From the IMG/VR virus record IMGVR_UViG_3300045988_159790: 64,000 nucleotides of DNA; one strand, 5' to 3'. This document shows, one piece after another, positions 1-9,582 of this stretch. Source of the stretch: a virus. The translations under genes and the position numbers were made by a program. How positions within the stretch are numbered: the stretch's first letter is position 1; each line of letters opens with the position of its first letter. Below the pieces are notes generated by a model. That model saw nothing but the letters and a program-made list of their open reading frames with translations, was not told the origin of the DNA and ran no database searches.

Positions 1-45
1 CGAACATGCGCCGAAACAAATAATTACCAAAACAATTGTAACAAT
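1..45 (-). CDS. 5' end of leftward gene running off window; hydrophobic N-terminus (MIVTIVLVIICFGAC...)
   Basis: ATG at 45 (minus) with AAAGGGG RBS just upstream; frame open to window edge; minus-strand promoters at 121-149 and ~99-116 upstream. Confidence 0.3.
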   Translation of the reverse strand, partial: MVTIVLVIICFGACS

Positions 46-120
46 CATAAAACTCAACCCCTTTCTATATTTATATGATAACATATTTTTTTATAATTGT
101 CAACTCCTTTCTACATTGTT

Positions 121-149
121 ATTATAACATTTTGTAACTTATTTGTCAA
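121..149 (-). promoter_or_regulatory. minus-strand promoter TTGACA-17-TATAAT (proximal, cassette 1)
   Basis: rc hexamers attata 121-126 and tgtcaa 144-149. Confidence 0.6.
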
Positions 150-164
150 GAACTTTCTGAAAAA

Positions 165-192
165 CTTTGTTTTCAATCTCATTTGTTATCTG
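165..192 (-). promoter_or_regulatory. conserved leader motif CAGATAACAAATGAGATTGAAAACAAAG (minus sense), copy 1
   Basis: Near-identical 27-nt block present once in each cassette between the distal and proximal minus promoters. Confidence 0.5.
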
Positions 193-217
193 CTTTTCTC
201 TGTTCCTTACATTGAAT

Positions 218-246
218 AGTATAATACTTTGAGGCAGATATTGCAA
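218..246 (-). promoter_or_regulatory. minus-strand promoter TTGCAA-17-TATACT (distal, cassette 1)
   Basis: Read from rc. Confidence 0.5.
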
Positions 247-255
247 TAGACAATA

Positions 256-295
256 TGCACAAAGTTATGGGAAAATATTTGTGCAGTTTTATGTG
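256..295. promoter_or_regulatory. operator-like inverted repeat TGCACAAAG-N-TTTGTGCA
   Basis: 8-9 bp arms with ~15-bp spacer containing TTATGGGAAAAT; located 10-50 bp upstream of plus promoter. Confidence 0.4.
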
Positions 296-305
296 CGGAT
301 TTCGC

Positions 306-334
306 TTGACAAAATATCAAAAGTATGGTATAAT
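306..334 (+). promoter_or_regulatory. consensus sigma70-type promoter TTGACA-17-TATAAT (cassette copy 1, convergent to flanking genes)
   Basis: Exact hexamers and 17-bp spacer read from sequence. Confidence 0.7.
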
Positions 335-342
335 GGTAAATA

Positions 343-369
343 CCGGCGAAGCCGGACGCCTTCCAGGCG
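343..369 (+). ncRNA. promoter-proximal twin hairpins A (CCGGC-GAA-GCCGG) and B (CGCCT-TCC-AGGCG), copy 1
   Basis: Begins ~9 nt after -10; stems co-vary between copies. Confidence 0.35.
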
Positions 370-394
370 ATGATTTTCTGACGAAAATTTTAGT

Positions 395-426
395 CATAAC
401 TAAAAAGGTAGGCATTTCTGCCTACC
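395..426 (-). terminator. rho-independent terminator of 439..888 (GGGTAGGCAGAAATGCCTACC + TTTTT on minus)
   Basis: Hairpin plus T-run on minus strand. Confidence 0.7.
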
Positions 427-438
427 CGCAACTGACTA

Positions 439-888
439 TTATATTAAATCTTTAAGTCTTTCAATAATGTCCTGTCTCGCGTCTATCGTGCAACCCTGCG
501 ACCAACCGCGTCTTACCTTTTCATTATCATCAACTAATATCTGAAATCCGCCTAAATGTCTAGTACAATTGGCTTTCGTTGTGCCATACTTGACAAGATG
601 TACTTCATCATAAGGGAAACCTATCTGCTCAAGCCATGCTCTCTTAGCACTGCGAACAGCCGCGTCATATTTTTTATTGCTTTCCTTGCTTAACCAACTT
701 ACAATAACAATCTTCCAACCATTAATCTTGAGTGTATTAATCAAATCGTTTAACATTGTAGGCTCATAAACTGGCTGTGCTATCTCATAAGGGCGAGTGC
801 TACAATTCTTTAAATCTTCAAGCCAACCCTCAACTCCATAGAAATCTGCTATTGTTCCGTCCATATCAAAAACTAAAATTTTATTCAT
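439..888 (-). CDS. HAD-superfamily phosphatase (5'-nucleotidase-like)
   Basis: N-terminal FDMDGTIADF (DxDGT motif I), VIVSW (motif II), LVDDN (motif IV); RBS AGAGGT; intrinsic terminator 395-426 just downstream. Confidence 0.75.
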   Translation of the reverse strand: MNKILVFDMDGTIADFYGVEGWLEDLKNCSTRPYEIAQPVYEPTMLNDLINTLKINGWKIVIVSWLSKESNKKYDAAVRSAKRAWLEQIGFPYDEVHLVKYGTTKANCTRHLGGFQILVDDNEKVRRGWSQGCTIDARQDIIERLKDLI

Positions 889-944
889 ATTATATACCTC
901 TTTTCTTTTTTAGATTGTCGGGGCTTTTCAGCCCCAACTTATTA

Positions 945-1916
945 TTAGCAATATCCCTCAAGCATTAACATTAAGCCCTCAATCTTACTTACATAAGAAT
1001 TATGCGTTGTCTGCTGGCTAAGATAGTTGTTAAATGCTTCAATAACTACTGGAATGGCTTTCGGTCTCTTGTTAATAGCATAATCGTAAGTTGTACCCAG
1101 TTCTCTGAAAGGAAAAGCCTTGAGTATTGGTTCAATCTTGCCTTTCTTTAATGCCTTTGTGAGAATATCAGCTTCTATCTCACTATCACTTAATGCGGTA
1201 TGGTCCTCAGTAAAATCGTATCTCTTATTAAGATACTGGAAGCTAGTTTCTGCTGAAGATTTAAAGAACTCTCCGCTGTTAGTGATTAAGCTATTGTCAA
1301 GACAGAAGTTTCTGTACTTATCAATATTTATTAATCTCTCACAAGCTACTGCCCATAAGTCCACGATAGGAAACTCAAAATCTCTTAACTTAAATACTGG
1401 TTTAAGATACTCTGGATTACTCTCTCTATCATCTTTATATCCCCTAACAATCTTCTCACAACTCATTCTCTGCTTATCTTCCCAGTACTGATAGCCTGGT
1501 GCGTAAAGGTGTGCGATGTACTGTTCTGTAAAAGGAATTGCTTTCTTGTAATCAAATGCGGCATTGTATGCACATGTGCAAGTACACATTTCCAAATCTT
1601 CAAGCAATTCTGCAACCATATCATTCCAGTTGCGAACACCTATCTTACCCTCTGCGAGAAGCTGTTCATAAATAGGGCGCTTATTGCGGTAATAGGCTGT
1701 ATTAAAGATAGCCGGTACAAAGAAAGTTTCCTGAATAAGATAATTAACTCTCTTTACTCTATTGCCCAATCTGTCTGTTATTACCCAGCCTATATCATAA
1801 ACAAGTGGCTTGGCAATAGCAATCTTCTGTTTCTGTTTCGGATTCTTTGCAATCTCATTTGCAAAAGGTAGTGTAGCAGTCTCCGTGTCCAATGTTAAAT
1901 AATACTTCTTTTTCAT
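945..1916 (-). CDS. DEDDh 3'-5' exonuclease (DnaQ-like)
   Basis: Exo I LTLDTETAT, Exo II YNAAFD, Exo III HTALSDSEIEAD motifs; RBS GAGGT; co-transcribed with 439..888 (no promoter in 889-944). Confidence 0.85.
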   Translation of the reverse strand: MKKKYYLTLDTETATLPFANEIAKNPKQKQKIAIAKPLVYDIGWVITDRLGNRVKRVNYLIQETFFVPAIFNTAYYRNKRPIYEQLLAEGKIGVRNWNDMVAELLEDLEMCTCTCAYNAAFDYKKAIPFTEQYIAHLYAPGYQYWEDKQRMSCEKIVRGYKDDRESNPEYLKPVFKLRDFEFPIVDLWAVACERLINIDKYRNFCLDNSLITNSGEFFKSSAETSFQYLNKRYDFTEDHTALSDSEIEADILTKALKKGKIEPILKAFPFRELGTTYDYAINKRPKAIPVVIEAFNNYLSQQTTHNSYVSKIEGLMLMLEGYC

Positions 1917-1955
1917 TTCTAAATGATACCTCTTTTCTTTGATTTCTATGTGTTT

Positions 1956-1985
1956 ATTATAACACCCTTTTTATTATTTTGTCAA
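1956..1985 (-). promoter_or_regulatory. minus-strand promoter TTGACA-18-TATAAT (proximal, cassette 2; drives exonuclease-HAD operon)
   Basis: Read from rc. Confidence 0.6.
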
Positions 1986-2001
1986 GTGGTTTTTTAAAAA
2001 A

Positions 2002-2028
2002 CTTGTTTTCAATCTCGGTTGTTATCTG
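2002..2028 (-). promoter_or_regulatory. conserved leader motif copy 2
   Basis: cttgttttcaatctcggttgttatctg. Confidence 0.5.
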
Positions 2029-2057
2029 TTTTTCTCTGTTCCCCTTGAACAATTATA

Positions 2058-2086
2058 ATTATAGACCTACTACAAGAGAATGTCAA
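2058..2086 (-). promoter_or_regulatory. minus-strand promoter TTGACA-17-TATAAT (distal, cassette 2)
   Basis: Read from rc. Confidence 0.6.
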
Positions 2087-2132
2087 GCATTTTTTAGGAA
2101 AAAATTGTTTTTATTTTAGTACATAAAATCGC

Positions 2133-2161
2133 TTGACAAATTACCGAAAGTATGCTACAAT
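2133..2161 (+). promoter_or_regulatory. promoter TTGACA-17-TACAAT (cassette copy 2)
   Basis: Read from sequence. Confidence 0.65.
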
Positions 2162-2169
2162 GCAAAATT

Positions 2170-2196
2170 CCGGCAAAGCCGGTCGCGCAGAGCGCG
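2170..2196 (+). ncRNA. twin hairpins A (CCGGC-AAA-GCCGG) and B (CGCGC-AGA-GCGCG), copy 2
   Basis: Same position relative to promoter; compensatory stem changes. Confidence 0.35.
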
Positions 2197-2205
2197 GTGA
2201 AAATG

Positions 2206-2232
2206 TAAAGAAAAAGTGCGGATTTCCGCACT
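2206..2232 (-). terminator. rho-independent terminator of 2231..2575
   Basis: AGTGCGGAAATCCGCACT + TTTTTC on minus. Confidence 0.7.
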
Positions 2233-2575
2233 AATTCTGATACAAATTTTTTACTTCTATTACATTTCCGCAACTATCACATTTATAATAATAATAGTTA
2301 GTACCTCCTACACCTCTTCCGCGACTGGAAGCACTAACAAATTCATAATGTCCATTTTCGCATTCTGTACAAATTCCATTATTCCATGTTTTTATATCGC
2401 TATCTGCCTCTTGTATAAGACCAAAAGAGAATAAACCCGCAATTATACTTGTAGTTATAATAAATACTAATATTTTTAACCATTTCTTTTTAGTATTCAT
2501 ATTACTAATTATTATTATACCGAAGAATGAACAAATAAGAAACATTAAACAAAACATAACGATATTTCTAAACAT
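2231..2575 (-). CDS. hypothetical membrane protein, two TM helices plus C-terminal CxxC...CxxC zinc ribbon
   Basis: 114 aa ORF, RBS AAAGGGG, hydrophobic segments, CTEC...CDSC; terminator hairpin at 2206-2232. Confidence 0.5.
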   Translation of the reverse strand: MFRNIVMFCLMFLICSFFGIIIISNMNTKKKWLKILVFIITTSIIAGLFSFGLIQEADSDIKTWNNGICTECENGHYEFVSASSRGRGVGGTNYYYYKCDSCGNVIEVKNLYQN

Positions 2576-2613
2576 ATTTTACCCCTTTCTTGGGGCTGTA
2601 TAGCCCCAATCCT

Positions 2614-3084
2614 TTATAATGTTTTACACTCTGCGACGAAATACTTCGCATGATATTTTTCTACAATAGCCTTTACAACAGTGCTTTGCTTTTGTGTCTC
2701 ACAATAGACATTGAATAACATATACTTCTCAATATCTATGTAGCTATATGGAATCCTTAAAGTGTCTAAAGTTTCCATTAACTCTTTAGCATAATGTGGC
2801 TTCACTGTCATTTCCACTTTCCATAGTTTATCTCTTGTACTCTTTTCTTCAATCAGCTTTACAATGTAAACTCCGATAAGATTACACATAGCTATTATGA
2901 AAGCCTTTAAGAGAAGCGGAAGGTCGCACATCATGTATATTACTACAATAGTATACAAACCATAGGCTAATGCGTTGATTGCGGCGGCAGCTCCTTTTCC
3001 ACACTTGACAGTTACTAAAGATTTTGCTGTCTGAATAATAACATTTACAATGTTAAGAATAATAAATAAAACTAATAAATTCAT
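2614..3084 (-). CDS. hypothetical membrane protein (N-terminal TM helices, soluble C-terminal domain)
   Basis: 156 aa ORF with GAGGT RBS; hydrophobic N-terminal half. Confidence 0.5.
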   Translation of the reverse strand: MNLLVLFIILNIVNVIIQTAKSLVTVKCGKGAAAAINALAYGLYTIVVIYMMCDLPLLLKAFIIAMCNLIGVYIVKLIEEKSTRDKLWKVEMTVKPHYAKELMETLDTLRIPYSYIDIEKYMLFNVYCETQKQSTVVKAIVEKYHAKYFVAECKTL

Positions 3085-3101
3085 AATTAATACCTCTTTT
3101 C

Positions 3102-3323
3102 TTAATATTCTTTTACTTCTCTTACTAAATCAACTGGTTCAGGTGGTACATCTGCTTCTGTAAGGTCTAACCAACAATGTCGCTCAAGCCATCTCAAAAG
3201 AACTAACTGTTCTCCTGTTATGTGTAAATATGTTGGCAGATTATCTTCATCATCATAATTGCCCTCAAGGTCTAATTTCTTAATACTTACATCATATTCA
3301 TCTTTCATAATTGAATACCTCAT
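3102..3323 (-). CDS. hypothetical small acidic protein (probable true start at internal ATG 3308, MKDEYD...)
   Basis: ORF; GAGGT RBS sits 8 nt upstream of the internal ATG. Confidence 0.45.
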   Translation of the reverse strand: MRYSIMKDEYDVSIKKLDLEGNYDDEDNLPTYLHITGEQLVLLRWLERHCWLDLTEADVPPEPVDLVREVKEY

Positions 3324-3350
3324 TTCTATTCTATGTTTTTGTCAAGGATA

Positions 3351-3377
3351 CTTGTTTTCAATCTTATTTGTTATCTG
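3351..3377 (-). promoter_or_regulatory. conserved leader motif copy 3
   Basis: cttgttttcaatcttatttgttatctg. Confidence 0.5.
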
Positions 3378-3395
3378 TTCCCTTGAACAATTATA

Positions 3396-3423
3396 ATTAT
3401 AACAGATTATAAGCAAATGTCAA
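3396..3423 (-). promoter_or_regulatory. minus-strand promoter TTGACA-16-TATAAT (distal, cassette 3)
   Basis: Read from rc. Confidence 0.55.
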
Positions 3424-3467
3424 GCAGTTTTGGGAAAATAAAAAAATTTTTTATTTTGATTTTTCTC

Positions 3468-3496
3468 TTGACAAAAATGCCAAAATGTGATATAAT
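3468..3496 (+). promoter_or_regulatory. promoter TTGACA-17-TATAAT (cassette copy 3)
   Basis: Read from sequence. Confidence 0.7.
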
Positions 3497-3505
3497 ATCA
3501 AAATA

Positions 3506-3541
3506 CCGGCGAAGCCGGACGCCCACAGGGCGGTCTTTTTT
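3506..3541 (+). ncRNA. twin hairpins A and B (CGCCC-ACA-GGGCG) followed by T-run GTCTTTTTT; a ~40-nt promoter-to-terminator unit, copy 3
   Basis: Hairpin B plus T7 forms an intrinsic terminator on plus strand. Confidence 0.4.
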
Positions 3542-3545
3542 GAGC

Positions 3546-3582
3546 ATAAAAAGCTGATGACTATTAGTTTAGTCATCAGCTT
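3546..3582 (-). terminator. rho-independent terminator of 3587..3952
   Basis: AAGCTGATGACTAAACTAATAGTCATCAGCTT + TTTT on minus. Confidence 0.7.
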
Positions 3583-3586
3583 ACAG

Positions 3587-3952
3587 CTACTTTTTCTTTC
3601 TATGCTTTATCAGCGACAGTGAGTATTCATTCTCGCCGATGTTAAAGGTCAACTCTTTCTGCGGATTGGCTATCTGAACATTACTAATCTTGCCATTAAG
3701 TACCATTCCTCCAAGTAGAGTTTTTAAACACCCGATAAAATCAACCTTTTCATCATCGAGTTTTACTTCTCGTGGCTTCCGCGGTTTCTTTTCAGCTTCC
3801 GCACCCTTAACATAGTTTTTTATTCCCTTAGCTTTGATTTCCATTTCCGCCATTTCCATAGCTTCTTCTTTTGTGACTGGTTCTCCGTCTGCTTCACATT
3901 CCTTGAAAATCTTTAAAGCTAACTTCTCTAAGGCTTCTTTTTTACTATCCAT
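3587..3952 (-). CDS. hypothetical protein
   Basis: 121 aa ORF, RBS AGAGGT, rho-independent terminator 3546-3582 immediately downstream. Confidence 0.55.
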   Translation of the reverse strand: MDSKKEALEKLALKIFKECEADGEPVTKEEAMEMAEMEIKAKGIKNYVKGAEAEKKPRKPREVKLDDEKVDFIGCLKTLLGGMVLNGKISNVQIANPQKELTFNIGENEYSLSLIKHRKKK

Positions 3953-3974
3953 GCCCTATACCTCTTTCTTTTAA

Positions 3975-3999
3975 ATTGGGCGGTGTATTTCAACCGCCC
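3975..3999 (-). terminator. GC-rich hairpin after 4009..4386 (weak T-run)
   Basis: GGGCGGTTGAAATACACCGCCC. Confidence 0.35.
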
Positions 4000-4008
4000 G
4001 TCCGCAGA

Positions 4009-4386
4009 TTAGACAAGTGAGAAGATTGCCTTGTCCTTTTCCTCTTCTCTCTTTGCTGTGCCATTGGCAACCATAATCTTGAGAAGTGCAACTACTTTCT
4101 GATTAGAAAGCGCCTGAACCGCTTCATCAGCAGGGAAGTCTTTCATAGCCTTGAGCATAATCTGAGTAGAAGTACCCTTGAAACCGTCAAGGACAACCTT
4201 GAGCTTCTCAACCAGTGCTTCATTAGCCTTAGCTTTCTTATCAGAACCAGCCTTAGCCTTAGCTTTCTTCTTCTCAAGGAGTTCCTTTTCGTGCATAAGA
4301 TAAGTCTTATACATCTCATTGTCCTGTACGAACTCTTCTCCAAGCATAGCCTCGATAACCTGTAACTTTGTAATCTTCTTTTCCAT
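4009..4386 (-). CDS. hypothetical protein (K/E-rich, helical)
   Basis: 125 aa ORF, RBS GAGGT; hairpin 3978-3999 downstream. Confidence 0.5.
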   Translation of the reverse strand: MEKKITKLQVIEAMLGEEFVQDNEMYKTYLMHEKELLEKKKAKAKAGSDKKAKANEALVEKLKVVLDGFKGTSTQIMLKAMKDFPADEAVQALSNQKVVALLKIMVANGTAKREEEKDKAIFSLV

Positions 4387-4498
4387 AATGCAATACCTCG
4401 CTTTTATATAATATTTGAAGCTGATTTTTATTTTTTAATGTGGTCGATTGATGGCTCCCTTTCCTTTCCACATATATATGATAGCACATTTTATTGCG

Positions 4499-4789
4499 CT
4501 AGTCAAGCATAAATAATGTCATTCCGGCTATTTCCTTTTCTACCACTTCTAAAGTATCTAAATGAATAGTGGCTCTGACTATCTTCCAACAGCCAGTTTC
4601 AAACTTGTTGTGTTCATGGCGGCGTGGTAGTCTCTCTGCGGCATGGACTGCACTCTGACAATCTTCAAATACACCATCTATAACATAAGCAACTTGCGTT
4701 CCCATGCAATCTAAGTATCTCATTACTTTTAAGACATACTTAGTCTCTGTTTTTCTTGGTACATGCTTAGTCTCTGTTCCCATAACCAT
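4499..4789 (-). CDS. hypothetical protein
   Basis: 96 aa ORF directly downstream of minus-strand TTGACA-17-TATAAT promoter 4810-4838; RBS GGAAG. Confidence 0.5.
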   Translation of the reverse strand: MVMGTETKHVPRKTETKYVLKVMRYLDCMGTQVAYVIDGVFEDCQSAVHAAERLPRRHEHNKFETGCWKIVRATIHLDTLEVVEKEIAGMTLFMLD

Positions 4790-4809
4790 TACTTCCTTTC
4801 TATACCCTT

Positions 4810-4838
4810 ATTATATCACTTAGGTATCTATTTGTCAA
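4810..4838 (-). promoter_or_regulatory. minus-strand promoter TTGACA-17-TATAAT (proximal, cassette 4)
   Basis: Read from rc. Confidence 0.6.
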
Positions 4839-4860
4839 GCACTTCTTTTTTTTTGTTCGG

Positions 4861-4888
4861 GTTGTTTAGCAATCTCATTTGTTATCTC
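4861..4888 (-). promoter_or_regulatory. conserved leader motif copy 4 (more diverged)
   Basis: gttgtttagcaatctcatttgttatctc. Confidence 0.4.
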
Positions 4889-4901
4889 CCTTACAAGTAT
4901 C

Positions 4902-4929
4902 ATTATAGCAGATTGCCCCAAAATTGCAA
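4902..4929 (-). promoter_or_regulatory. minus-strand promoter TTGCAA-16-TATAAT (distal, cassette 4)
   Basis: Read from rc. Confidence 0.5.
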
Positions 4930-4939
4930 TAGTCAAAAC

Positions 4940-4969
4940 TGCACAAGATTTTGGGATAATGTTTGTGCA
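4940..4969. promoter_or_regulatory. operator-like inverted repeat TGCACAAG-N-TTTGTGCA
   Basis: Same architecture in cassette 4. Confidence 0.4.
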
Positions 4970-4988
4970 ATATGTCAACTTTTTTCCC

Positions 4989-5017
4989 TTGACAAAAATC
5001 CTAAAAGGTGGTATAAT
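4989..5017 (+). promoter_or_regulatory. promoter TTGACA-17-TATAAT (cassette copy 4)
   Basis: Read from sequence. Confidence 0.7.
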
Positions 5018-5026
5018 AGGCAAATT

Positions 5027-5050
5027 CCGGCGGGGCCGGACGTGCTCCGC
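5027..5050 (+). ncRNA. hairpin A (CCGGC-GGG-GCCGG) and degenerate hairpin B, copy 4
   Basis: Same spacing from -10. Confidence 0.3.
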
Positions 5051-5059
5051 CCGGTGCGA

Positions 5060-5200
5060 TTATTCTAACTTAAATTAGTTTGAACTAACAAGTGTTTTAT
5101 AAGTCTAACTTAAGTTAGCTTAATCTAACTACAGTTAGTTTGAATTAACAAGGATTAGCTTAATCTAACTAGAGTTAGTTTGAATTAACAACTGTTAAAA
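5060..5200. repeat. tandem ~40-bp iterons (2 near-identical plus 2 degenerate) each carrying palindrome CTAACT-N2-3-AGTTAG followed by TTTGAATTAACAA
   Basis: agcttaatctaactacagttagtttgaattaacaagg at 5117 and 5157; degenerate copies at 5060 and 5098. Confidence 0.7.
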
Positions 5201-5299
5201 ATTGCTAACTTTACTTTTATAAAACGAACTTCAATTCGTCTTCTCTAACTTTAATTTTATACAGCTAATTACAGATATTTGTAGCTAATTAAAATTAGA

Positions 5300-5335
5300 G
5301 AACGCAAATCGAATTTTGGAGGGTTGCCGCTACTT
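5300..5335 (-). terminator. hairpin GGGTTGCC-N7-GGCAACCC overlapping stop of 5330..5614 (weak T-run)
   Basis: 8-bp stem. Confidence 0.35.
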
Positions 5336-5614
5336 GGCAACCCAAACCTTTAATATTATGTCGTCATATTTAGACGACTGGTCATTAATGTCAAATAACA
5401 TCTTGACATTTTGACCCTCCGCGATATCACAGCCATCATATTCCCAGATATCGCCTGCCCTATCAGCAATCCGCACAAATCCATTATCATTGCTGATTAC
5501 CTTACCCTCTCTTGTACAGTGACCCTCAAGGTATATCGCGCCTAAGAATAATATTCCTAAAACTAAACCCAGGGCTATTCTTTTAACTATTGCTTTACTA
5601 TTGTTTTTTCTCAT
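5330..5614 (-). CDS. hypothetical secreted/membrane-anchored protein
   Basis: 94 aa ORF, N-terminal basic stretch plus hydrophobic helix (signal/anchor-like), RBS GAGGT. Confidence 0.5.
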   Translation of the reverse strand: MRKNNSKAIVKRIALGLVLGILFLGAIYLEGHCTREGKVISNDNGFVRIADRAGDIWEYDGCDIAEGQNVKMLFDINDQSSKYDDIILKVWVAK

Positions 5615-5675
5615 TTTAAATACCTCATTTCATTTTTATTTTTATATGTGGGCTTGGCTTCCCAAGCCCTAATCA

Positions 5676-5984
5676 TTAACAATATATCAAACTCATGTCT
5701 GCCCACTTGAGAATAGATATCTGTGCGCATTGTCTACCAAGTGCCAAAGCGTCTCTTTTTGTAGACACTCTGTGGCTCTTGTCTACAAAATAAACGCCAT
5801 TCTCAAGCCAAAGTCCGCAATTACCACCGTATGCTCTAACGGCTTTAATTGCTTCCTCGGGAGTTGTAACCATTACTCCCTCGGTGGCTACTTGATAACC
5901 ACTCTTGTATGTGATTATCTTACCATTCTTGAGTGTTAAACCGCCACACTCCTCAATCTTTCTTATTGTCCTAATGTTTATCAT
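5676..5984 (-). CDS. hypothetical protein
   Basis: 102 aa ORF with RBS GTGAGGT. Confidence 0.5.
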   Translation of the reverse strand: MINIRTIRKIEECGGLTLKNGKIITYKSGYQVATEGVMVTTPEEAIKAVRAYGGNCGLWLENGVYFVDKSHRVSTKRDALALGRQCAQISILKWADMSLIYC

Positions 5985-6026
5985 ACTTATAATACCTCAC
6001 TTTCTTTTCTCTTGGATAGTCCCGGC

Positions 6027-8422: not shown

Positions 8423-8439
8423 ATTATCTACTTTTGTCC

Positions 8440-8468
8440 TTGACTTGTGAAAATTTTTTTGGTATAAT
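8440..8468 (+). promoter_or_regulatory. promoter TTGACT-17-TATAAT for rightward late/structural operon
   Basis: Read from sequence. Confidence 0.65.
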
Positions 8469-8499
8469 TATTATAAGAATAAGAAATAAGGAGAGACTA

Positions 8500-9582
8500 A
8501 TGGAGCAACAAAAAGAAAATAGTGATTATATTAAAATGGATTTTAATATTGAATCACCTGCGGAAAGAGTAGAGAAAGTAAAAGAAATTATTGCCAACAC
8601 TCCTCCTGAAAGATTAACTCATTCTTACTTAGAGAAATTAAGTAATTACATAATTTTTGCTATGGATAAAGAAGAAAGAAAACAAAACAAAATCTTAACA
8701 GATAACCATATGCAAACAGTAAATGTAAGAGAGACATCTTTTGAAGGACTTGTAGGTAGATTAGAAAATGGTGAAGATGGTATATATAATATGATTGCGA
8801 ATGACAAAAATATTATATTTAAACCAAAATTTGAAATTACAGACGCGGATATCGCGGAAATGCCTGAGCTAAGAGAACTCCGCAAGGGCATAGAAGAATT
8901 AAAAGAACAGTTAAAAACAGCAAGAGGCAAAAAAGCATATCAAATAAAAAAACATATCATAGAAGCAAGTCAAGACCAGTATGTAATAAAAAATTCTTAT
9001 AAAAAACCTATCTATTGTATAAATCCCCTTAAAAGTGTAGCAAAATTAGATTTAGATGAACATGTAACTGTTGATGAAAATGATGAAATTCATACTGATG
9101 GTATTTTAAGTTTACTCGTGCCGCGACATATTTGCGCGGTATTATGTAATTATGAAAAATTAAGAATTCAAACTTGGGATAAGTTAAATAGTGATGTTAA
9201 ATGGTTTCTTGTAGACTTAGATAATCTTATAGATGAAACTTTAAAATATGATTATCCAATATATTATGATATCACTCTCTTGAAAATTCGCGGCTACCAG
9301 AATACAGAAATTCAAGAGTATTTAGAAATAAAATATAATGTAAATCACTCTGTTGAATATATTTCTTCTCTTTGGAGAAATAAAATACCAAAATTACTTG
9401 CGGAAAAGGCACAAGAGAAATGGTTAGTTTGGTATTATACTAACAAAGCAGAAGGAAAATGGAAAAAATGTTCAAGATGTGGGCAAATTAAGTTAGCTAG
9501 TAATAGATTCTTTTCAAAAAATAATACAAGCAAAGACCATTTTTACAGTATATGTAAATGTTGCAGAAATAAAAGAAAATAA
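8500..9582 (+). CDS. hypothetical protein with C-terminal Cys4 zinc ribbon; first gene of rightward late operon
   Basis: ATG 8500 with AAGGAGA RBS (ORF track start 8434 lies inside promoter); CSRCGQ...CKCCRNK. Confidence 0.6.
   Translation: MEQQKENSDYIKMDFNIESPAERVEKVKEIIANTPPERLTHSYLEKLSNYIIFAMDKEERKQNKILTDNHMQTVNVRETSFEGLVGRLENGEDGIYNMIANDKNIIFKPKFEITDADIAEMPELRELRKGIEELKEQLKTARGKKAYQIKKHIIEASQDQYVIKNSYKKPIYCINPLKSVAKLDLDEHVTVDENDEIHTDGILSLLVPRHICAVLCNYEKLRIQTWDKLNSDVKWFLVDLDNLIDETLKYDYPIYYDITLLKIRGYQNTEIQEYLEIKYNVNHSVEYISSLWRNKIPKLLAEKAQEKWLVWYYTNKAEGKWKKCSRCGQIKLASNRFFSKNNTSKDHFYSICKCCRNKRK

Follow-up and report, generated by a model that had tools for sequence, protein, structure and literature searches.

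Genes, promoters and motif copies in the early region

We analysed a 64,000-nucleotide stretch of viral DNA (IMG/VR record IMGVR_UViG_3300045988_159790; this whole stretch is called the window below) with respect to a short motif that recurs on its minus strand, and we estimate a probability of roughly 0.85 that this motif belongs to a structured, transcribed leader element. The phage has a GC content of ~31%, and its genes include those for a sigma factor of its own (8434-9582), for terminase and portal, for a tape-measure protein of 3110 aa and for an anaerobic ribonucleotide reductase. Positions 1 to ~8000 hold small minus-strand genes, each set behind consensus sigma-A promoters. The 64 kb contain eight perfect TTGACA-N16-18-TATAAT sites, every one of them inside 1-5017; this is an early region, read by host polymerase. 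Its operons comprise one to three translated genes and have terminators at their ends only. The motif is one component of a ~250-bp repeated cassette that also contains terminator hairpins and a plus-strand promoter, and promoter cassettes of this kind have been duplicated and shuffled within the phage family. The closest relatives are uncultivated IMG/VR phages of ~150 kb, and megablast and blastn searches of GenBank phages returned neither related sequence nor a copy of the motif.

A preliminary description of this DNA had reported a 27-nt motif that is nearly identical in cassettes 1-3 and recognisable in cassette 4, and our searches bear this out. The 27-mer CAGATAACAAATGAGATTGAAAACAAG is found on the minus strand at 166-192 (one mismatch), 2002-2028 (two mismatches) and 3351-3377 (one mismatch), with zero matches expected by chance (100 shuffles), and a fourth, degenerate copy reads GAGATAACAAATGAGATTGCTAAACAAC at 4888-4861 (minus strand). 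When a covariance model of the element was scored at every position of the window, only these four copies emerged and the next match reached 17 bits. The core of copy 4 carries a 1-nt insertion (GAUUGCUAAAC), and the identical variant occurs in three further loci (L001, L044 and L138). The copies and the minus-strand promoters around them, the latter from a promoter scan with matches counted out of 12, are as follows.

157..202, minus strand: element copy 1, 52.7 bits; stem arms at about 198-192 and 165-159, core loop GATAAC...AAC at 190-169
1993..2038, minus strand: element copy 2, 57.8 bits; arms at about 2034-2028 and 2002-1996, core at 2026-2005
3342..3387, minus strand: element copy 3, 41.5 bits; arms at about 3390-3377 and 3351-3339, core at 3375-3354
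4852..4898, minus strand: element copy 4, degenerate, 32.3 bits; arms at about 4896-4888 and 4861-4853, core at 4886-4864
218..246, minus strand: distal promoter of cassette 1, TTGCAA-17-TATACT, 9/12; would transcribe copy 1
2058..2086, minus strand: distal promoter of cassette 2, TTGACA-17-TATAAT, 12/12
3396..3423, minus strand: promoter of cassette 3, its only one, TTGACA-16-TATAAT, 12/12
4902..4929, minus strand: distal promoter of cassette 4, TTGCAA-16-TATAAT, 10/12
121..149, minus strand: proximal promoter of cassette 1, 12/12
75..103, minus strand: third promoter of cassette 1, 11/12
1956..1985, minus strand: proximal promoter of cassette 2, 12/12
4810..4838, minus strand: proximal promoter of cassette 4, 12/12

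The motif had been placed between a distal and a proximal promoter in every cassette. A distal promoter does lie upstream of all four copies, and cassettes 1, 2 and 4 have a proximal promoter, but cassette 3 has none. It contains a -35-like TTGACA (3345-3340) with no -10 box, and this hexamer belongs to the 3' arm of the hairpin described below. In cassette 1, three stacked minus-strand promoters precede a small hydrophobic open reading frame that runs past the window start. A mini-hairpin, GUUCaagggGAAC, at 2050-2038 precedes copy 2. After copy 4, the A-run at 4854-4846, between the hairpin and the proximal promoter, is a hypervariable homopolymer, with 9 A in the window and 32 A in a 98%-identical relative (L001/L044).

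The motif is the loop of a covarying stem-loop

The conserved part of the motif is a 22-nt core of the pattern GAUAACAA-A-Y-GAGAUUGA-N-AAC, which sits in a loop of ~25 nt with the sequence R-GAUAACAA-A-Y-GAGAUUGA-N-AAC-AA. An exact-pattern scan for the core returned 10 viral and 76 metagenome stretches, some of which are chance matches in coding regions. The promoter-associated instances (~25 distinct) have flanks that are unrelated to those in the window, and we based the structure statistics on 23 independent instances from viral and metagenome contigs. On both sides of the core the flanking sequence differs between phages while the two flanks stay complementary to each other, as the arms of five loci illustrate.

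L128: 5' arm AAAACAG, 3' arm CTGTTTT
L085: 5' arm AAGAGG, 3' arm CCTCTT
L133: 5' arm GGTTGAGG, 3' arm CCTAACC
L006: 5' arm AGGAAT, 3' arm ATTCCT
L005: 5' arm GATAAG, 3' arm CTTATC

As a control, we built chimeras whose 5' and 3' flanks came from two different instances and held the core unpaired. The mean stem energy was -3.71 kcal/mol with an instance's own flanks, compared with -0.78 kcal/mol in the chimeras (Mann-Whitney p 7.6e-11), none of 20,000 permutations attained the observed own-flank mean, and core matches that arose by chance or in coding sequence gave a mean of -1.15 kcal/mol. For a six-pair stem in an ungapped, core-anchored alignment, 76.1% of cells pair versus 48.0% in shuffles (0/500), and the covariation score is 0.711 versus 0.228 (0/500). 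All six stem pairs vary on both sides, the closing pair being C:G, A:U, G:C or G:U depending on the lineage, and sliding the stem to other registers leaves pairing at only 38-53%. A larger, model-derived alignment of 35 distinct sequences does not change this picture.

As the flanks are complementary and yet divergent, the motif is the loop of a stem-loop, which has ~10 pairs and a median loop length of 25 nt. The core is predicted to be unpaired in folds of the window copies, and copy 3 folds at -8.8 kcal/mol with a z-score of -2.2. Element scores are bimodal across loci, which indicates that nearly every loop position is constrained. Within Rfam 15 (searched to E=1), nothing overlaps the element in window positions 1-6000 or in eight other element-bearing loci, where the only matches were two weak ones off the element, and the motif sequence is unreported in the searchable literature. 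The element is thus an undescribed, covariation-supported stem-loop. Likenesses of the loop to CRISPR I-B/III repeats at their 3' ends, to the anticodon loop of tRNA-Phe, to the decoding site of 16S, to cre sites, to RAT and to K-turns had no support, and an A-rich 22-mer finds matches easily.

The hairpin stands at the predicted start of transcripts from the upstream promoter

Sigma-A promoters start transcription ~7 nt after the -10 hexamer. The outermost paired base of the element lies at a median of 7 nt past the -10 hexamer (range -1 to 22), and the base of the stem thus coincides with the predicted transcription start, which would make the hairpin 5'-terminal. Every promoter-associated instance has a strong sigma-A promoter upstream in the orientation of the element, which follows the -10 box by 17-35 nt in the ~25 distinct instances. 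On the downstream side, between 6 and 41 nt separate the element from the next -35, 14 of the 23 non-redundant instances lie between stacked promoters and ~7 have no downstream promoter at all.

The upstream promoter is therefore the constant, co-oriented partner of the motif, which favours the leader-RNA option among those that the preliminary description had listed, whereas the variable or missing proximal promoter argues against a DNA site that serves it, so that an activator or repressor site or an UP-like element fits poorly. The earlier reading, which had a leader RNA signal among its options, is partly borne out but overlooked the covarying stem-loop that begins at the predicted start.

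Distribution among phages and other mobile elements

Three or more mutually unrelated groups of phages or mobile elements of Firmicutes carry the element, gut and rumen phages included. In no fewer than 20 lineages, spread over three element groups, every letter of the core is kept, whereas the flanks on either side are no longer recognisably alike. Inside the family of the window phage, which we anchored on the sigma factor, the element is confined to the window clade and to the clade of L046. The preliminary description had expected the motif to recur in homologous cassettes of related genomes; it was found in close relatives and in some distant phages, but many cassettes of the same family are without it. 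Homologues of the cassette-2 gene for a 323-aa protein (L050, L055-L057, L060, L064 and L065) stand behind a single promoter without the element, and single-promoter relatives have no 5' hairpin of any kind. L047, L068 and L111, on the other hand, have stacked promoters with different hairpins at the equivalent place, which suggests that the family as a rule places a 5' hairpin at the head of its distal, long-leader transcripts. The element with the conserved loop is a specialised, dispensable form of this habit. The alternative hairpins at the start of the distal transcript read GUUCCaggaaGGAAC in L047 and UACCACUuaaaagAGUGGUA in L068 and L111, and the mini-hairpin GUUCaagggGAAC ahead of copy 2 in the window holds a like place.

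Outside the family, the element is carried by phi29-like podoviruses, which have a protein-primed polymerase. Four of these contigs (L005, L008, L069 and L130) hold tandem arrays of a consensus promoter plus the element, with a 112-bp period, at one contig end, where they lie upstream of the operon with the gene for the protein-primed DNA polymerase. Further instances are found in contigs with ParB-like, XRE and transposase genes. Phylogenetic profiling detected no phage protein that co-occurs with the element. Taken together, the unrelated carriers, the lack of a co-occurring phage protein and the constrained loop point to a conserved partner on the host side. PLSDB plasmids gave weak matches, the best of which, an A/T-rich, iteron-like stretch of Paraclostridium with altered invariant positions, we judged to be due to chance.

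A proposed mechanism and its possible host partner

We propose that RNA from the distal early promoter (in cassette 3, from the sole promoter) begins with the hairpin at its very 5' end and that the hairpin would act in two ways. First, the stem would supply long-leader transcripts with a base-paired 5' end. Such ends shield Firmicutes mRNAs against 5'-end-dependent decay, and transcripts from the proximal promoter, which would start near the ribosome-binding site, would do without the hairpin. Second, a conserved host factor would recognise the loop by its sequence and dock there: so nearly invariant a loop must be in contact with a host component that is conserved to the same degree. We give this two-part scheme about an even chance of being right in outline.

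For the docking at the loop, the NusB/S10 (Nus) transcription-elongation machinery would be the first candidate, since over its 3' two-thirds the loop is similar to what stands at the boxA position in the rRNA leaders of some low-GC Clostridia. Docking of Nus would render early transcription complexes similar to those on rRNA operons, that is fast and resistant to termination. Bacillales rrn leaders contain GATCTTTGAAAACTGAACAA, with GATCTTTGAAAAC, between promoter and 16S, a stretch that is probably the boxA region of Firmicutes. A scan of genomes for GATTGAAAAC at 56-116 nt upstream of the 16S start returned 30 leaders. Several from uncultured low-GC Clostridia contain (A)TGAAGATTGAAAACTGAATAA, with (A)TGAAGATTGAAAAC, and two from Peptostreptococcaceae contain GGAGATTGAAAACTGAACAA, with GGAGATTGAAAAC, at the same position as the Bacillales GATCTTTGAAAAC. 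The counterpart in the phage loop is (A)YGAGATTGANAAC, with GAGAUUGAAAAC as the stretch compared with boxA, and the 3' part of the loop matches the boxA-position sequence of some Clostridial rrn leaders over 12-16 nt, in leaders that may not be those of the host. It has been reported that boxA varies with phylogeny, divergent forms having been validated by comparison with rRNA leaders from the species itself or a relative (Stringer et al., PMC7665894), and that boxA regulation extends beyond rRNA (Baniulyte et al., PMC5725501). The 16S-23S spacer of a candidate host lineage contains 5S and tRNA genes, in a stretch too short to show a second boxA.

The element shares with boxA and nut sites (rRNA leaders, lambda nut, CRISPR-array leaders, suhB) the character of a short RNA signal just past a strong promoter. 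Those sites are read as nascent RNA by conserved host factors and are exploited by mobile elements, for example lambda. Also in common is a sense-orientation, single-stranded motif in the 5' leader, since the core lies 17-35 nt after the -10 box, is co-oriented and is predicted to be unpaired. Unlike boxA and nut systems, however, the phage loci have no analogue of boxB or N, and neither downstream terminators nor long untranslated RNA in need of protection are found at them.

Other leader systems resemble the element in part. Firmicutes and phage stabilisers, such as the 5'-terminal stem-loops and leaders of ermC, aprE and SP82 early RNA, likewise place a hairpin at or a few nucleotides from the start of a strongly expressed mRNA with a long leader. 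They act through structure or ribosome binding and do not need a conserved loop, whereas the element combines a weak stem with a near-invariant 22-nt loop; because the loop is near-invariant while the stem varies, the element is more than a generic stabiliser. With the cis-acting antiterminator RNAs that work on RNA polymerase directly, HK022 put and Bacillus EAR, the element shares the character of a structured leader RNA right after phage early promoters, but put consists of two stem-loops in ~70 nt and EAR is a larger, multi-helix RNA, and neither shares the sequence or architecture of the element. The T4-type cassettes of promoter plus stem-loop (PeSL), a further parallel, are repeated early-promoter modules with an attached stem-loop, scattered in a plastic early region and prone to duplication. 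They differ in host phylum and sequence and are conserved over the whole repeat; here the loop alone is conserved and the stem covaries.

Several observations weigh against the reading of the element as a structured leader RNA with a protective stem and a Nus-docking loop. With respect to structure, the stems are weak: unconstrained folds of the window copies range from -4.2 to -8.8 kcal/mol, and the fold z-scores of copies 1-4 are +0.23, +0.08, -2.17 and -1.39. Neither the counts of G.U versus A.C (9 versus 8) nor strand-specific energies discriminate which strand folds, so that the case for RNA is built on the constant placement of the element behind a promoter and in its orientation. With respect to function, a generic protective hairpin has no need of a conserved loop, and the element is dispensable, since many relatives have no copy. 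With respect to boxA, the likeness is modest: the pattern used for the Clostridial leaders forced 10 matching bases, and in unbiased Bacillales leaders the similarity over the whole loop reached p ~0.02 and ~0.2, with the best match of a third leader off-site. The 16S processing stem also takes in part of the rrn sequence. Moreover, boxA in rrn is a linear element of ~12 nt that is not known to form the loop of a hairpin, in contrast to the covarying hairpin described here, and short translated operons with end terminators only have no obvious need for antitermination or for protection from Rho. In view of the forced pattern, the weak unbiased leaders, the overlap with the 16S stem and the short translated operons, we regard the identification of the docked factor with the Nus complex as doubtful, even as first candidate.

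More tentatively still than the two-part scheme, though with somewhat more confidence than in Nus itself, we suggest that the element may represent a new class of mobile-element RNA whose loop hijacks or neutralises a conserved host machine, as rRNA-leader mimic or as decoy, and which unrelated Clostridial phages and other elements may have acquired independently. As a mimic of rRNA leaders, it could load Nus factors on early complexes without a phage protein; as a decoy, abundant early RNA could block an RNA-recognising host defence or nuclease. Early transcription in Firmicutes phages of gut and rumen is almost unstudied, and the element, short and easily recognised, marks the first RNA after infection in several unrelated phage groups. 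The identity of its partner could reveal a protein-independent capture of host elongation factors, a new RNA stabilisation signal of Clostridia or an RNA-based counter-defence. The element could also be used to flag early regions and indicate host range in phage contigs from metagenomes, and as a leader part when genes are expressed in Clostridia.

Alternative explanations

Among the alternatives, a decoy or trans-acting small RNA survives best. According to this explanation, the distal promoter would mass-produce the hairpin, whose loop would titrate an RNA-binding protein of host defence or regulation or would pair with a host RNA. Several features speak for it: each of the several copies per genome stands behind a consensus early promoter, and in the phi29-like phages promoter and hairpin together form the arrays of 112-bp period; among relatives the element occurs in patches, a pattern typical of accessory counter-defence functions, and it crosses unrelated mobile elements; the loop is under near-total constraint, with bimodal scores; and the alternation of U and C at core position 10 fits pairing to G. 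However, duplex scans of the window and of bacterial rrn loci for a complementary RNA target yielded nothing above the shuffled background except the element's own antisense strand. The periodic host repeat arrays expected if the element mimicked a CRISPR RNA (an RNA anti-CRISPR) or a type III antitoxin were not seen with the core either, since the 76 core-bearing metagenome loci contain no CRISPR- or antitoxin-like arrays with a 30-70 nt period, bacterial genomes not having been searched with the full core. Finally, no terminator or obvious processing site follows the hairpin, which would therefore remain joined to the downstream mRNA. We consider a decoy or trans-acting small RNA unlikely.

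Far less probable is a double-stranded DNA site, be it an operator, an activator site or an UP-like element, that governs the proximal promoter. The 14 instances between stacked promoters are what such a site would predict, phased direct repeats (CAGAG, CAGAT, GAGAT) recur 10-12 bp apart in cassettes 1 and 2, and the strand test is compatible with a DNA structure. Against this stand the spacing to the next -35, which is far from fixed, and the instances that have no downstream promoter to govern. In addition, the proximal promoters have an A/T-rich upstream stretch of their own, as do all promoters of the family, and arms that change and remain complementary indicate a folded single strand, unlike a sequence-specific duplex site.

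Equally remote is the explanation that the motif is a passenger without function that was copied with promoter modules through recombination. The promoter cassettes of the family have clearly been duplicated and shuffled, and many relatives dispense with the element, but neutral hitch-hiking would predict neither a letter-perfect core between diverged flanks in at least 20 lineages and three element groups nor the retained complementarity of these flanks.

The least credible explanation, a translated or vestigial initiation region in which a Shine-Dalgarno-like run, an AUG and a mini-ORF (MRLKT...) would give a leader peptide or a ribosome-binding 5' stabiliser, draws on the GGAG, GAGG or AAGG that lies 7-9 nt ahead of the AUG in many 5' arms and on gene starts of the family (GGTAACAAAAATGAG) that come near the motif's GGATAACAAATGAG, but it founders on the replacement of AUG by ACG in seven lineages and by GUG, CCG or AUA in others, on the absence of synonymous changes in AGA UUG ANA, where third codon positions never vary and the sole free core position (19) would be a second codon position, on the lack of conserved length and sequence past codon 5, and on a Shine-Dalgarno-like run that is sequestered in the stem and missing in several lineages, including L128, L093 and L120.

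Other features of the cassettes

Each cassette also contains a perfect plus-strand promoter (TTGACA-17-TGnTATAAT) followed by a GC hairpin.

306-334, plus strand: promoter of cassette 1; GC hairpin at 343-369
2133-2161, plus strand: promoter of cassette 2; GC hairpin at 2170-2182
3468-3496, plus strand: promoter of cassette 3; GC hairpin at 3506-3532
4989-5017, plus strand: promoter of cassette 4; GC hairpin at 5027-5058

These promoters fire against the end of the preceding minus-strand operon and directly into the GC hairpins. The arrangement is kept in L046, L050, L064 and L065; the stems differ between copies and the loop is semi-conserved. Viewed on the minus strand, the GC hairpin followed by AAUUUU reads as a second terminator. 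The units could serve to insulate transcription or could give rise to short, convergent RNAs. For the CCGGC-NNN-GCCGG hairpins beside the cassettes, we dropped the idea of an N4-like hairpin promoter because the 3110-aa open reading frame encodes the tape-measure protein and not a virion RNA polymerase.

Between the divergent promoters lies an inverted repeat, TGCACAAA ... TTTGTGCA, at 285-278/263-256 in cassette 1 and at 4970-4963/4945-4939 in cassette 4, and relatives carry TTTGTGCAA 10-17 nt upstream of the -35 of the plus-strand promoter. This repeat has the look of an operator to which a dimeric regulator would bind. Positions 5060-5280, immediately upstream of cassette 4, hold at least five 20-bp units with the palindrome CTAACT-NN-AGTTAG, and a similar block is present in L047; the units may be an array of operators or a block of origin-like iterons.

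Immediately upstream of the distal -35, at 3437-3427 and at the equivalent places of the other cassettes, the sequence reads TTTTCCCAAAA. The same string stands upstream of the -35 of the rRNA promoter in L025 and L033, two contigs from a genome of uncultured low-GC Clostridia, and its sharing may be a clue to the host or reflect phage mimicry of rRNA promoters. The 323-aa early protein encoded behind cassette 2 (945-1916, minus strand; phrog_20187) is kept across the family at 24-28% identity, and its N-terminus, MKKKYYLTLDTETA, appears similar to a DEDD-type exonuclease motif.

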